A stretch of 64,000 nucleotides of DNA from Candidatus Thorarchaeota archaeon. GTDB taxonomy: Archaea; Asgardarchaeota; Thorarchaeia; Thorarchaeales; Thorarchaeaceae. Where the stretch lies: the NCBI GenBank assembly GCA_048882485.1, contig JBHLRP010000001.1, positions 160,001-224,000 on the forward strand. The letters run 5' to 3'. The notes beneath the pieces were generated by a model that was given only the letters and a program-made list of their open reading frames with translations, was not told the origin of the DNA and did no database searches. Shown here piece by piece: positions 39,448-43,616 of the stretch. How positions within the stretch are numbered: position 1 is the first letter of the stretch; every line of letters starts with the position of its first letter. Made by a program: the position numbers and the translations under genes.

Positions 39448-40482
39448 TCACTTCGCCCTATTTCGTCGTCTGGTGACAATGCCAAGTGCTATGAATCCAA
39501 CAATCACACTGAACCACAGCGTGACGAATCGGATGATGATGGTCGCCGCTCCGGTGATAGCTTGGCCAATTTCCCCAGTTAGACCGAGTAAAGCTGGAAT
39601 TAGAATGAGGGCGGTCGCCTCATACCCTCCTAGTCCACCTGGCGTAAAGACAAGAGCACCAATAACTGAGGCTGCACTATGAATGAAGGTGGAGATTAGA
39701 AGTAGGTTTAGAGAACTCGGCTCCAGTGAGGGAAATCCCGCTCCGGTGAGCAGGGACAATAAGAGCCAGAGCTCGACACATTCCATGAACCAGCCTGGAA
39801 TGCTGACTCCTGTACTGACCATCATTGGCTTTGGTGAAAGAGTTGAAGATAATGTGTCCTCAATAAGATCTGTACTGCTCTGGAATCGTTTTAGAGGACC
39901 AAACGATGTCATCTTTTTCAGGAATTTATTATAGAACCTAGGTTGACTCAGGAAAATGGCACCTACCAAGACAACTCCACCAAGAAGGATAAGGGTGAGG
40001 ATTTGATCTGCCGCTGATACACCCAGTGCGAATCCAACAAGGGCCAGTAGTATCATAGCAAGCAAATCAGTGACTCTCTCTGACACCACCACTGGGACTG
40101 TCTTTGCAATAGGTGTGCCATCGAGTTCGTTAATGAAATAGCCTTTGATGGCTTCACCGATTTTACCTGGACTCGCAGTAAGTGTGAAGCCCGCCAAGAA
40201 GATACTGAAACTGTCGGCATGAGAAAGGCTTACTCCGATTCTTCCCAAATAGTATTGCCACTTGAAATAGCGAAAGATGTAATTCAGAAAAGATAACACC
40301 ATCATCGCTGGGAATACCCACCACCATTCGATTGTAGCAATAGCTGCGGCCACCTCATCATATTTGCTGTAGAAGAAAATAGCAAGATAGATGATGATAG
40401 CAACCATCACGAAAACCACGAGGTGCCGAAGATTGATGAAGGACGACTCTTTTTGCTGGCTTGCCTCATTGTTCTCGATCAT
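39448..40482 (-). CDS. Lysylphosphatidylglycerol synthase TM-domain / UPF0104 flippase-like membrane protein
   Basis: FRYFKWQYYL, SPGKIGEAIK, ERVTDL, TPGGLGGYEA and IRFVTLW motifs; about 8 TM helices; ATG 40482 overlaps the PHP stop (ATGA). Confidence 0.85.
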   Translation of the reverse strand: MIENNEASQQKESSFINLRHLVVFVMVAIIIYLAIFFYSKYDEVAAAIATIEWWWVFPAMMVLSFLNYIFRYFKWQYYLGRIGVSLSHADSFSIFLAGFTLTASPGKIGEAIKGYFINELDGTPIAKTVPVVVSERVTDLLAMILLALVGFALGVSAADQILTLILLGGVVLVGAIFLSQPRFYNKFLKKMTSFGPLKRFQSSTDLIEDTLSSTLSPKPMMVSTGVSIPGWFMECVELWLLLSLLTGAGFPSLEPSSLNLLLISTFIHSAASVIGALVFTPGGLGGYEATALILIPALLGLTGEIGQAITGAATIIIRFVTLWFSVIVGFIALGIVTRRRNRAK

Positions 40483-41159
40483 GGTGGCCACTTCCTCAGC
40501 CTCTGCCATATGAAACCAGGAATATGAACATAGAAGAAAGATACATGCCCTGTGATCTGAGTCCTCCCCCTACGAAGCTCCTCATAGATGTCGTCAGCAG
40601 TCTCTATGTCCTGCAGCCAAGTTTTGCCATGGCCTACTTCTCTACCAAAATGCCCGTCACTTCCAGCTGTCATTGGTTTGCCAAGCCGCCTAGCCAGACG
40701 CTGAGCTTTTGTGTTGTGGATGGGGAGAAGACAACGGGAATTTATGCCCTCAATGAGATCCACATGCTCGCTGATTAGGTCCTCAGGGAGCATCTTTCGA
40801 ACAGCAGTTTGCTTCCGAAAGGGATCCTTTGGATGAGGCAGAATTGTCAGAGCGTTCTGATCGTGGATGTCATCTGCTATTTCTTCAAACGTTCGATTCT
40901 CAATCGGTTCAGTGACGAACAGACCAATCAGCTCGCCGTGGTCAGAGGATTTGTACTCACAACCGTTGATGAGAAACTTATCATTCCTGACAATAGGCTT
41001 GAAGATGGACGGCTGCCAATGCTCAGTAAGTGCCATGCCCCTTAGCCCTTTCTTCCTCATCAGCTTGAACAGATTCGCCGGCCTATTCAACCCATCCTTC
41101 GAGAATAGGGTGTGCGTATGAAGGTCAAAGGCTGAGAGGCGCGTGCTCATCTGCAACAC
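40479..41159 (-). CDS. PHP-domain metal-dependent phosphoesterase
   Basis: DLHTHTLFSKDG, ALTEH, GCE, PHP and AGSDGH metal-ligand motifs. Confidence 0.9.
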   Translation of the reverse strand: MLQMSTRLSAFDLHTHTLFSKDGLNRPANLFKLMRKKGLRGMALTEHWQPSIFKPIVRNDKFLINGCEYKSSDHGELIGLFVTEPIENRTFEEIADDIHDQNALTILPHPKDPFRKQTAVRKMLPEDLISEHVDLIEGINSRCLLPIHNTKAQRLARRLGKPMTAGSDGHFGREVGHGKTWLQDIETADDIYEELRRGRTQITGHVSFFYVHIPGFIWQRLRKWPP

Positions 41160-42155
41160 CTATGGAAGCGCTTCAGGGGGCGGGAAAATAACCTGAATGA
41201 ATTCGAATACAGGCTGCCAGAAGAACATCGTGAATAGTAATGTTCCAAGGAAAATTATGCTTCCGACAAGAATCCCCAGGTCTTTGAAGGCTAGATGTGG
41301 CTTTCGGCCCACTGGACTTCCTGATTGGATGAGGTACACATATCTCATTATAAGTCCTGCAGCTATTGGAACTGTCATCATGACAGGCTGAGCGACTGGG
41401 TTTGGAAAGTTATTGTATACATAGAGCGCGTAGAAGAGCACAAACCAAGTGGCTGACATAGTAATTCCTTGGTCCAGCATTCTGTCCGTATACTGATCAA
41501 ACACCTCTTTGTGAGCCTCAGCATCTTCACCTAGGAGTTGTAACTCGTTCTTTCGCTTCCCGAATCCCAGAATCAGTGCGAAGAAGAATATACCCACTAC
41601 CAGCCAGGATGTGAATGGAACGCCGATGAGAAAAGTGCCTCCAATTGCTCTGAGGATGAATCCCACTGCGAGGATGACTACATCAACAACAGCCCATTGG
41701 CGAAGGAAGTGGTTGTATAGTTGAGCATTGACAATATACAGGATGACAATGAGTAGGAAGAGACCTCCCACAGCTCCCACTCGATAATACGCTCCGAGCA
41801 TTCCTACACCATAGTATGACAACAAGAGCCCTGCAGCCATGAGGACAGCAGCCAGAATATAGGCTGTCCTCTTCGATGCCCCGCCAGAAGGAAGGGGGCG
41901 ATTCTTTTTCTCAGGATGGGCTGAGTCCTTTTCCATGTCTGAAATGTCATTAATGATGTATCCCGCACTTGATACAAAGCAAAGTGCAACGAATCCAAGA
42001 ATAAGTAGGGGATAGTTCGCCCAGTCGAATATTGCTGGTAGCTTCTCCCATGGCCATTGCTGTGGAATCTCCACGAAAATCACTGCAATGAAGACAAGCA
42101 AGTTCTTGTACCACTGCCATGGGCGCATTAATTTGATGTAGTCCTTAGCTGCCAT
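41160..42155 (-). CDS. UbiA-family polyprenyl-phosphate phosphoribosyltransferase (DPPR synthase-like)
   Basis: MRPWQWYKNLLVF, YIINDISD.EKD..HPEKKNRPLPSG, GFILRAIGG and GKRKNEL motifs, characteristic of the Rv3806c-like UbiA subfamily. Confidence 0.85.
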   Translation of the reverse strand: MAAKDYIKLMRPWQWYKNLLVFIAVIFVEIPQQWPWEKLPAIFDWANYPLLILGFVALCFVSSAGYIINDISDMEKDSAHPEKKNRPLPSGGASKRTAYILAAVLMAAGLLLSYYGVGMLGAYYRVGAVGGLFLLIVILYIVNAQLYNHFLRQWAVVDVVILAVGFILRAIGGTFLIGVPFTSWLVVGIFFFALILGFGKRKNELQLLGEDAEAHKEVFDQYTDRMLDQGITMSATWFVLFYALYVYNNFPNPVAQPVMMTVPIAAGLIMRYVYLIQSGSPVGRKPHLAFKDLGILVGSIIFLGTLLFTMFFWQPVFEFIQVIFPPPEALP

Positions 42156-42170
42156 TTCTGATCCTCCATC

Positions 42171-43250
42171 CTATTCTGAATATGATTTCCAAAGTTCTCC
42201 CCATTCGGTTTCCTCAAGGAACCAGTTTACCCATTTCTTGCCCTTTAGTGGAAGCCAGATGCCATCATGATACAGTCCGGAGAGCTGTGTGGGAAGCCAC
42301 ATTAGGGGCGAGCGGAAAAGGAATTGCTCCATGCCCGGAAATCGTAGGAATCCTCTATTCCAAGCGATTACTGGCGATTTGCCTGGACTCATATGGAAAT
42401 TGGGCAAATCCTTCCATGACTCGTAGTCACCAACAATCTCAATGTCCTCAGGATCTGCGCTCCCCAGTCCTAGGCTGTCAGCAATCTGAAGCTTATGAAC
42501 ACAATTTAGATCTAATCCCATGATTCTGGATTGTACCGTATCAGCAGCTACCATGTCGTTTGTAGCGATTAGCAGATTCCCAATCTTTGGAATCATTGTT
42601 CGTGGTCCTGCCCCGTCCCCCATGACAGTCCCATCAGTAAGAACAAACTCAGAGTTGGAGATCGTCTGCTGAAGCAAAAGCAGATCAACCAGCACCTCAT
42701 GGATCTTGAGATGGGCAAGGTGTCTCTTTTTGGTCAAATAAAGCCCAAATGAGTCCTTGAGAGCCCCTGTCATCTGAGTATGCCCATGAGTCTTCACAGT
42801 TGGAAGATGAATAATGTTGGTCCCAAAGATTTCTTTCGGAGCGATTATCTCACCAAAGACATCCTCAAGAACTAGGGTCTTCTGAGGGAGCTTCACGTCA
42901 ACATAGGTTGCCTCAATGAGTGGGAGGAACTTGATTCGATGTTTCTTTATCACAGGATACCAGTTATTCCCCCTAGTGCCAGCATAAATGTTTGTGACAA
43001 CGGTTTCATTCTCGACCGCTTGAATGTTGCGCGGTGAATAGCCATCGGCTATCATTTTTCTCAGAAGGCCATCGAATACATAGGGATTAGTTGAGCAGGC
43101 AGGATAGAACTTTGACCAAGATAGATTGAGCTTGATGGTAGTTGCGACATTCTTTGAAACATGTTTCTGATATTCAGCCTCATCGAGGAGGCGACCAATG
43201 TCGTCAAAGATTGTCTTTGGAGTGGTGTTTACAACAGCTACCTTGGGCAT
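42171..43250 (-). CDS. DUF362 domain protein
   Basis: TIKLNLSW...STNP, IHLPTVKTHGHTQMTGALKDSFG, DG...GAGP and DMVAADTV; no fused ferredoxin domain. Confidence 0.85.
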   Translation of the reverse strand: MPKVAVVNTTPKTIFDDIGRLLDEAEYQKHVSKNVATTIKLNLSWSKFYPACSTNPYVFDGLLRKMIADGYSPRNIQAVENETVVTNIYAGTRGNNWYPVIKKHRIKFLPLIEATYVDVKLPQKTLVLEDVFGEIIAPKEIFGTNIIHLPTVKTHGHTQMTGALKDSFGLYLTKKRHLAHLKIHEVLVDLLLLQQTISNSEFVLTDGTVMGDGAGPRTMIPKIGNLLIATNDMVAADTVQSRIMGLDLNCVHKLQIADSLGLGSADPEDIEIVGDYESWKDLPNFHMSPGKSPVIAWNRGFLRFPGMEQFLFRSPLMWLPTQLSGLYHDGIWLPLKGKKWVNWFLEETEWGELWKSYSE

Positions 43251-43616
43251 ATGATTCTCCCTCGAGGCGATTTAATCTCCCGCTATTGAGTCTTTTCGAG
43301 TTGATGGATTGGTCGAATGGGGTGCCCTTAAGAACTTCTCTCTAATTGCAGTTTTGTACCAAGAAGGATGCTCTTAATGCAGCAAATGAAGCTGGAAAGA
43401 GCATTGAAGACTTCTTTATTCGTCTGCAGGAAATAACTACAAGTTCTCTTGAATCACTATATCCTGACCAAGAGAGAAATAGAGTCAAGGAGTTGTTCAA
43501 ATAATGGATACTTTCCCTAATCCTTGGATTTCCCTAGGAATACCTTTGCTAAACACTCTTCTTCTTTTATTGTTGTGCTATTGGTATAACTCCAATAGGA
43601 GAAAGCCAGACAACGA

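Follow-up and report, generated by a model that had tools for sequence, protein, structure and literature searches.

A Thorarchaeota operon joining a DPPR-synthase-type UbiA protein to a LarA-fold DUF362 protein, and its predicted role in making a lipid-linked pentofuranose donor

The bacterial three-component pentofuranose systems described by Kelly et al. (2024) consist of a polyprenyl-phosphate phosphoribosyltransferase (PPPRS) with a phosphoribose phosphatase (PRP), a flippase, and a GT-C transferase. Epimerases are optional in these systems and act on the lipid-linked ribose in the cytoplasm, with DprE1/DprE2 leading to arabinofuranose and an enzyme of the short-chain dehydrogenase/reductase (SDR) family leading to xylofuranose (PMC11127046, which covers bacteria only). 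In Citrobacter youngae O1/O2, for instance, the parts are ORF15 (PPPRS-PRP), ORF14 (a MATE flippase), ORF12 (GT-C/GT136), and ORF13 (the SDR epimerase) (PMC11127046). Here, a 64,000-nucleotide stretch of DNA from the metagenome-assembled genome of a Candidatus Thorarchaeota archaeon (assembly GCA_048882485.1, contig JBHLRP010000001.1, positions 160,001 to 224,000; hereafter the window) was found to carry on its minus strand four tightly coupled genes, which encode a DUF362-family protein, a UbiA-family protein of the DPPR-synthase type, a PHP-domain phosphoesterase, and a membrane protein of the LPG_synthase_TM (UPF0104) family. On balance, sequence and gene context favor the view that the product of this operon is a pentofuranose donor linked to polyprenyl (dolichyl) phosphate, for use in extracytoplasmic glycosylation.

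The likeness to a three-component system extends to each predicted activity, as the locus would supply a UbiA-type synthase that uses 5-phosphoribosyl pyrophosphate (PRPP), a 5'-phosphatase, a flippase, a cytoplasmic sugar-inverting enzyme and, in related loci, a GT-C enzyme. The parts themselves differ. The phosphatase is a separate PHP protein rather than a fused HAD domain, the flippase candidate is LPG_synthase_TM-like and non-homologous to the MATE or SMR flippases, and the optional SDR or DprE1/DprE2 epimerases have as their proposed counterpart a DUF362 protein of LarA fold, which is the most constant partner. Furthermore, the hosts are archaeal, and in Thorarchaeota no GT-C gene is linked to the operon. 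The mycobacterial decaprenyl-phospho-arabinose pathway (Rv3806c, Rv3807c, DprE1/DprE2, and Rv3789) begins with a homologous enzyme and has in common with the proposed pathway the logic of dephosphorylation, then sugar inversion, then flipping. It differs in that Rv3807c is a PAP2 phosphatase and DprE1/DprE2 an oxidase using flavin adenine dinucleotide together with an SDR reductase, whereas the carrier lipid here is presumably of the dolichol type. The operon fits the three-component scheme with non-orthologous parts, such that the pathway type is known and the enzyme set undescribed. An earlier reading of the window from its letters and open reading frames (ORFs) alone, the first-pass annotation, had put the pathway itself forward as undescribed; with the bacterial systems in print since 2024 (PMC11127046), only the enzyme set is new.

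UbiA type, conserved linkage and gene context

The UbiA protein finds its best NCBIfam match in NF008977, the DPPR synthase model, at 188 bits, followed by NF008978 at 142 bits, while the models for other UbiA subfamilies (digeranylgeranylglyceryl phosphate (DGGGP) synthase, heme o synthase, and the quinone and chlorophyll prenyltransferases) reach at most 56 bits, a margin of more than 130 bits. The best match in the Protein Data Bank (PDB) is likewise Rv3806c (8j8j, E 5e-23), with DGGGP synthase at only 1.5e-5. In a phmmer alignment, K17, Y66, N69, and D73 correspond to Rv3806c K28, Y70, N73, and D77, of which Lys28 and Tyr70 contact the 5'-phosphate of PRPP, and Asn73 and Asp77 serve the Mg/pyrophosphate site (PMC10994848). 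For Gln135, the ribose-O3 contact of Rv3806c, the Gln of the Thorarchaeota protein sits one position off the aligned column. The UbiA partners that adjoin DUF362 orthologs in other lineages behave similarly, with NF008977 the best match for 8/8, and with 3/8 above its cut-off, namely those of Methanolobus, Chloroflexota, and locus L013, at 250-270 bits. By both sequence comparisons, the protein groups with Rv3806c and the DPPR synthases, as the first-pass annotation had proposed, and not with DGGGP synthase or the quinone prenyltransferases.

The DUF362 protein belongs to a tight orthologous group, with 44-52% full-length identity across Asgard, DPANN, Methanosarcinales, Chloroflexota, and Rokubacteria. 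In a tblastn survey of 85 loci, the order DUF362-UbiA-PHP-flippase was found in every Thorarchaeota locus with enough contig, and in distant loci UbiA lay mostly within ~3 kb of DUF362. The operon arrangement recurs in all ~45 Thorarchaeota loci, where order and spacing are kept although protein identity ranges over 54-98%. The DUF362-UbiA pair is also found in four further phylum-level groups: DPANN, Methanosarcinales (including Methanolobus bombayensis), Chloroflexota, and Rokubacteria. Among 41 Asgard genomes, 22 have the DUF362 ortholog and 21 a DPPR-like UbiA; both occur together in 21 and are adjacent in 20. Likewise, each gene is present in 5 of 201 Halobacteriota genomes (>=85% complete) and both in 4, always <=3 kb apart, with both mismatched cases at contig edges. 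In three genomes with a non-adjacent DUF362 ortholog, UbiA is present elsewhere in the genome. Conserved order and spacing across Thorarchaeota, together with conservation of the pair across phyla, place the arrangement far from chance, and the linkage of the four genes, whose non-conservation the first-pass annotation had named as a refutation, is upheld. No fusions of UbiA or PHP to DUF362 were found, only intein-bearing versions of the latter, and a search of a protein atlas returned DUF362 clusters only.

The first-pass annotation had seen no DprE1/DprE2 in the window and had suggested that DUF362 takes their place. Genome-wide, no DprE1-type ALO domain (PF04030) was found in the window's genome (90.5% complete) or in 29 further carriers, of which six are 94-99% complete, so that no DprE1-type gene was found in any of the 30 carriers searched; the same search gave a match in Corynebacterium glutamicum, used as a control. 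The only PAP2 gene of the window's genome is on another contig, consistent with the earlier statement that the window holds neither a PAP2 nor a HAD phosphatase, HAD proteins not having been searched for across the whole window.

Gene context was analysed in 21 distant loci, which were chosen for carrying UbiA. A PHP gene is present in 8 of them, a flippase-like gene in 7, a PMT_2-type GT-C gene in about half, and AglB in 2, and the loci commonly hold GT2, nucleotide-sugar, methyltransferase, and B12-radical-SAM genes. A cultured methanogen, Methanolobus bombayensis DSM 7082 (L087:5479-16313), has the fullest cluster, in the order radical SAM (radical SAM/SPASM), Wzx-like flippase, GT2, DUF362, PMT_2 GT-C, UbiA, PHP, and LPG_synthase_TM. 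The Thorarchaeota PHP protein carries the motifs DLHTH (the N-terminal HxH) and GSDGH (the C-terminal GSDxH) in its translation, and a PHP gene follows UbiA in Thorarchaeota, Methanolobus, and several DPANN loci. The membrane protein matches end to end the LPG_synthase_TM family that includes the MprF flippase domain and the TIGR00374 proteins; unlike MprF it has no synthase domain, and its cargo would be a polyprenyl-phospho-sugar and not an aminoacyl-phospholipid. Locus L016 encodes a fusion of a member of this family with a GT2 polyprenyl-phosphate sugar synthase. PHP is thus a reasonable candidate for the 5'-phosphatase of polyprenyl-phospho-ribose-5-phosphate, the role assigned to it in the first pass, and the LPG_synthase_TM-like protein a reasonable candidate for the flippase of the lipid-linked pentose, both roles fitting the gene context and reasonably viewed as non-orthologous displacement. 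The first-pass annotation had left open whether the UPF0104 protein is a flippase or the pentosyl transferase. Because a PMT_2 GT-C gene adjoins the pair in other lineages, the transferase is more likely a PMT_2-type enzyme, and only the flippase role is retained for UPF0104. The window's own genome has three PMT_2-type genes, on contigs C5, C38, and C70, unlinked to the operon.

Some distant loci hold additional genes. In five DPANN loci (L078:11056-13417, minus strand; L082, L084, L091, and L092) genes for an Amino_oxidase-family flavoprotein (432-447 aa) and a B12-binding radical SAM protein join the pair, which hints at further modification of the sugar, and two of these loci, L078 and L091, carry a second, divergent DUF362 paralog as well. 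In Rokubacteria (L132-L134, 9020-12649, plus strand), a UbiA-DUF362(intein) pair comes directly after genes for LptD, a DegT aminotransferase, and UDP-glucose dehydrogenase, a setting that suggests a part in lipopolysaccharide modification.

The DUF362 protein, LarA and the nickel-pincer cofactor

The DUF362 protein of the window matches PF04015 only, and not Lar_N (PF09861). Pfam places both DUF362 and DUF2088/Lar_N in clan CL0471 (PMC11770544), and the DUF362 model cross-matches a LarA homolog of this genome (contig C79) at 33 bits. In the first pass, a distant kinship with LarA-type racemases had been suggested. An AlphaFold2 model of the protein, of high confidence (pLDDT 93, pTM 0.92), gave Foldseek probability 1.0 for 11 LarA chains, the LarA family being its only strong structural relatives. 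With VIA-align the LarA chains superpose at Z 14.0-15.8 and a root-mean-square deviation of 3.0-4.1 Å over 206-239 residues, the next unrelated chain having Z 5.7. As modelled, DUF362 has the two-domain alpha/beta fold of LarA, and the suggested kinship now has both shared clan and fold behind it. The two proteins differ in length (359 aa for DUF362 vs ~420 aa) and at the C terminus, where the soluble DUF362 subfamily has a Trp-rich, helical, amphipathic extension (residues 293-355) that is possibly a membrane-interface element. They also differ in the substrates involved, because all known LarA substrates are alpha-hydroxy acids, whereas the substrate proposed for DUF362 is a lipid-linked sugar. 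At least 11 further DUF362 paralogs are encoded in this genome outside the window (contigs C15, C5, C59, C27, C8, C40, C10, C61, C25, and C53).

A local profile-profile alignment with the LarA family pairs H155 with the catalytic His174 and K165 with the cofactor residue Lys184. Because the probability of this alignment is low (9%), equivalence of K165 to Lys184 is instead argued from fold and motif, as K165 lies inside the (S/T)-G-(G/A)-x-K motif shared with LarA and is invariant in 36 orthologs and 13 paralogs. The spacing of the DUF362 residues, H155-x9-K165-x3-G169-x10-H180, resembles that of LarA, H174-x9-K184-x4-G189-x10-H200, such that H180 falls 11 residues after a conserved Gly just as the nickel-binding His200 does, a match by spacing and not by residue-level superposition. 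H155, K165, and H180 are invariant, and K40, E/D80, K153, H155, K165, H180, D206, and D237 are invariant or near-invariant in the 13 paralogs as well. In contrast, S44, W45, C52, H157, H177, H184, R217, T218, Y327, H328, and D329 are specific to the subfamily. By these comparisons, DUF362 appears to retain LarA's cofactor Lys together with one of its catalytic histidines, and probably also its nickel His. A profile of DUF362 orthologs gave no match against PDB sequences, an hhalign run against a single LarA homolog gave a meaningless match, and global hhalign gave junk; only the local run with paralogs was usable.

In more than 100 clusters of DUF362 orthologs, a LAGLIDADG intein of ~520 residues interrupts the protein at exactly the K153/T154 junction (...HLPTIK / C...HN / THGHT...), the hosts being Thorarchaeota, Hodarchaeota, Woesearchaeota, Nanoarchaeota, Rokubacteria, and Binatia. 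Inteins usually occupy conserved functional motifs, and the insertion site therefore agrees with a location of the K-T-H-G-H segment in the active site. It is unusual for a metabolic protein of unknown function to harbor so widespread an intein allele.

Many organisms make the nickel-pincer nucleotide cofactor without LarA, and DUF362 is not named in the work that describes them (PMC13524815). The window's genome has a pair of LarE genes and a pair of LarA homologs besides LarC. LarC accompanied by LarB and/or LarE, without LarA, occurs in four DPANN genomes. Among DPANN, a Woesearchaeota genome (G042; L128:6204-8769, minus strand) has a LarE-LarB-LarC operon and an Aenigmatarchaeota genome (G047; L127:2577-4451, plus strand) has LarB-LarC; canonical LarA (Lar_N) was not found in these two small genomes, both of which carry DUF362 genes. 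In a sample of 251 Chloroflexota genomes (>=80% complete), 52 of them with a DUF362 ortholog, LarC is present in 48/52 carriers versus 85/199 non-carriers (odds ratio 16) and, where LarA is missing, in 9/10 carriers versus 32/133 (odds ratio 28, Fisher p 5e-5), statistics that ignore shared ancestry. The counts include three unpublished genomes (G301, G466, and G394), whose removal would shift each cell by at most one. In Asgard, where 37/41 genomes have LarC, the near universality of the gene makes the phylum uninformative on the cofactor idea; among 14 control genomes, LarC was found in 4/5 of the DUF362-positive ones.

None of the DPANN genomes examined has LarC near the DUF362-UbiA locus, and in Chloroflexota loci L085 and L095 the neighbors of the pair include no lar genes. 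In Chloroflexota genome G483, LarC and LarB lie 12.6 kb from the pair, with unrelated genes between. In the same genome, LarB is the C-terminal part of a 666-aa protein adjoining LarC (L135:3442-5442, minus strand), and the DUF362 ortholog lies in a 644-aa ORF (L135:15135-17069, plus strand) whose N-terminal 320 residues are unexplained and which may be an over-long call. Use of the nickel-pincer cofactor by DUF362 is a live possibility.

The proposed pathway and its alternatives

All biochemical steps of the proposed pathway are drawn from sequence, fold, and gene context. The UbiA-type enzyme, judged by homology and its conserved PRPP-contact residues, would move 5-phosphoribose from PRPP to polyprenyl phosphate, and the PHP phosphoesterase, judged by its family and its conserved place after the UbiA gene, would strip the 5'-phosphate. 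DUF362 would then act on the lipid-linked ribose in the cytoplasm, most probably by inverting a ring hydroxyl, at C2' to give arabinofuranose or at C3' to give xylofuranose, in a LarA-like mechanism of transient oxidation followed by reduction that may involve the nickel-pincer nucleotide cofactor, and would thus take the slot of bacterial DprE1/DprE2 or the SDR epimerase. The LPG_synthase_TM-like protein would carry the donor across the membrane, for use by a PMT_2-type GT-C transferase encoded elsewhere in the genome. At the level of the pathway, homology and cross-domain synteny give good support to a predicted lipid-linked pentofuranose donor derived from PRPP. For DUF362 itself, the most economical assignment, and a plausible one, is a LarA-like epimerase, given the fold, the three conserved residues, the context, and the partial association with nickel-pincer genes. 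The narrower proposal, that the subfamily is a nickel-pincer-nucleotide-dependent epimerase of polyprenyl-phospho-ribofuranose, is offered tentatively. Of the first-pass interpretation as a whole, the UbiA type, the linkage, the failure to find DprE1, and the kinship with LarA have stood, and the transferase role of UPF0104 and the novelty of the pathway type have not.

A number of observations weigh against the pathway as drawn. The usable alignment between DUF362 and LarA is weak (E 0.004) even with paralogs added. The catalytic His108 of LarA has no DUF362 equivalent and aligns with the invariant V85, and the region of Arg75, which contacts the cofactor phosphate, is a 5-residue gap in the alignment with no DUF362 equivalent identified; for both reasons DUF362 is not a strict member of the LarA family. 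LarA homologs with a single histidine are known (PMC12611868). With respect to the cofactor, LarC is present in 10 of 23 distant carriers and was not found in 13, of which 5 also had no LarE, in genomes whose completeness is not known. Many DPANN carriers have no LarC, and Bacteroides thetaiotaomicron, the exception among the controls, has DUF362-family genes but no LarC. The Chloroflexota carriers are enriched for LarA as well as LarC. As for the neighboring enzymes, the Thorarchaeota UbiA scores below the equivalog cut-off of NF008977 (188 vs 234 bits), and tblastn queries with six GT-C proteins turned up no GT-C gene in the window or, at any Thorarchaeota locus, within 10 kb. In the 21 distant loci, PHP is absent about two times in three, and so is the flippase-like gene, which leaves UbiA and DUF362 as the sole constant pair, an odd situation for an 'auxiliary' epimerase and one with room for another role. 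In the literature searched, no archaeal glycan containing arabinofuranose or xylofuranose was ascribed to a pathway of this kind, and the activities of all four proteins are predictions.

It is possible, if not the favored view, that the donor made by the operon is a lipid-linked ribofuranose that undergoes no epimerisation, and that DUF362 has another essential role beside UbiA, such as an oxidoreductase yielding a keto or otherwise modified pentose, a 5'-phosphatase where there is no PHP, or a non-catalytic or regulatory partner of the synthase. The bacterial ribofuranose systems need only a synthase, a phosphatase, a flippase, and a GT-C enzyme, with epimerases optional (PMC11127046), a scheme that sits well with DUF362 being the one universal UbiA partner when PHP is in only 8/21 distant loci, with the single equivalent to the two LarA catalytic histidines, and with the lack of LarC and LarE in many carriers. 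The many invariant His, Asp, and Cys residues of the subfamily could, in this case, bind a plain metal ion. However, phosphatases and scaffolds are not known among proteins of the LarA fold, the conserved Lys/His/His triad is the cofactor-binding and catalytic one, and Chloroflexota carriers are enriched for LarC even without LarA. Moreover, every Thorarchaeota locus has PHP alongside DUF362, which is therefore no mere stand-in for it.

A use of the UbiA-DUF362 pair outside glycosylation, in which a phosphoribosylated membrane lipid or a prenylated cofactor-like metabolite is itself the end product, is improbable. The lack of a linked GT-C gene in Thorarchaeota, the sub-cut-off score of the Thorarchaeota UbiA, and a lactate-permease-like gene that precedes DUF362 in one order-level relative would each be in keeping with it, but the loci of Methanolobus, DPANN, Chloroflexota, and others set the pair among genes for PMT_2 GT-C, AglB, GT2, a Wzx-like flippase, and nucleotide-sugar enzymes, Rokubacteria place it beside LptD and sugar-nucleotide genes, and the window's own genome does have PMT_2-type genes. 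That the four genes are chance neighbors or mis-called ORFs has a negligible likelihood, as it is refuted by the synteny conserved within Thorarchaeota and, for the pair, across phyla, and all four proteins match Pfam models above the cut-offs.

The proposed lipid-linked pentofuranose pathway would extend this form of glycosylation to archaea, and would provide the large, very conserved DUF362 subfamily of Asgard, DPANN, and methanogenic archaea and of several bacterial phyla with its first function open to testing. If DUF362 is indeed the nickel-pincer-dependent epimerase tentatively suggested here, it would be the first LarA-fold enzyme to act on a lipid-linked sugar instead of an alpha-hydroxy acid, and a one-protein, oxygen- and flavin-independent replacement for DprE1/DprE2. 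The chemistry of the LarA/nickel-pincer superfamily could thereby be widened from hydroxy acids to sugars. The idea also touches on the open question of what uses the cofactor in organisms that make it without LarA (PMC13524815), as DUF362 would be one missing user where LarBCE occur without LarA. Because Methanolobus bombayensis DSM 7082 is a cultured carrier with the full cluster, the idea is directly testable.

Gene coordinates, operon junctions and flanks

The positions of the four genes, each of which exceeds the curated Pfam cut-offs, are given in Table 1.

Table 1. Positions of the operon genes and related features (window coordinates unless a locus is named)
Feature	Position	Strand	Family matches and remarks
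DUF362-family gene (359 aa)	42171..43250	-	PF04015, E 1e-19; first gene of the operon
Predicted UbiA-family polyprenyl-phosphate phosphoribosyltransferase, DPPR/PPPRS type (331 aa)	41160..42155	-	PF01040; NF008977 is the best NCBIfam match
PHP-domain phosphoesterase (226 aa), PHP plus PHP_C	40479..41159	-	PF13263, 2.4e-17; PF02811, 7e-7
LPG_synthase_TM / UPF0104 flippase-like membrane protein	39448..40482 (ORF to 40509)	-	PF03706, 3e-37; TIGR00374, 7e-21
Intergenic region (366 bp), presumed promoter	43251..43616	-	No ORF; upstream of DUF362
Intein-bearing DUF362 (example)	L072:691-3339	+	LAGLIDADG intein

The co-directional, tightly packed arrangement reported in the first pass was verified at each junction. 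The gap between DUF362 and UbiA is 15 bp, the GTG start of PHP abuts the UbiA stop (an alternative ATG start lies 9 nt further downstream), and the start of the flippase-like gene overlaps the PHP stop in ccaccATGAtcgag (an ATGA overlap in the context ccaccATGAtc). For the flippase-like gene, the start is probably the ATG at 40482 (~344 aa) rather than the in-frame ATG at 40509 (353 aa). Upstream of the DUF362 ATG, within the region presumed from its position to hold the operon promoter, an A/T-rich 'attaaat' lies ~28 nt before the start codon and a 'gggag' ~10 nt before it. The flanking genes are unrelated to the operon, with a convergent gene for a giant surface protein on one side and genes for a Metallophos phosphatase, a SLOG/LOG protein, and a Ras-like protein on the other.

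The order-level relative with the permease-like neighbor is a single lineage (L068:8004-9632, plus strand), in which the gene immediately upstream of the DUF362 ortholog belongs to the lactate-permease family (PF02652, E 2e-37), a curious neighbor given the LarA-like fold of the DUF362 protein.

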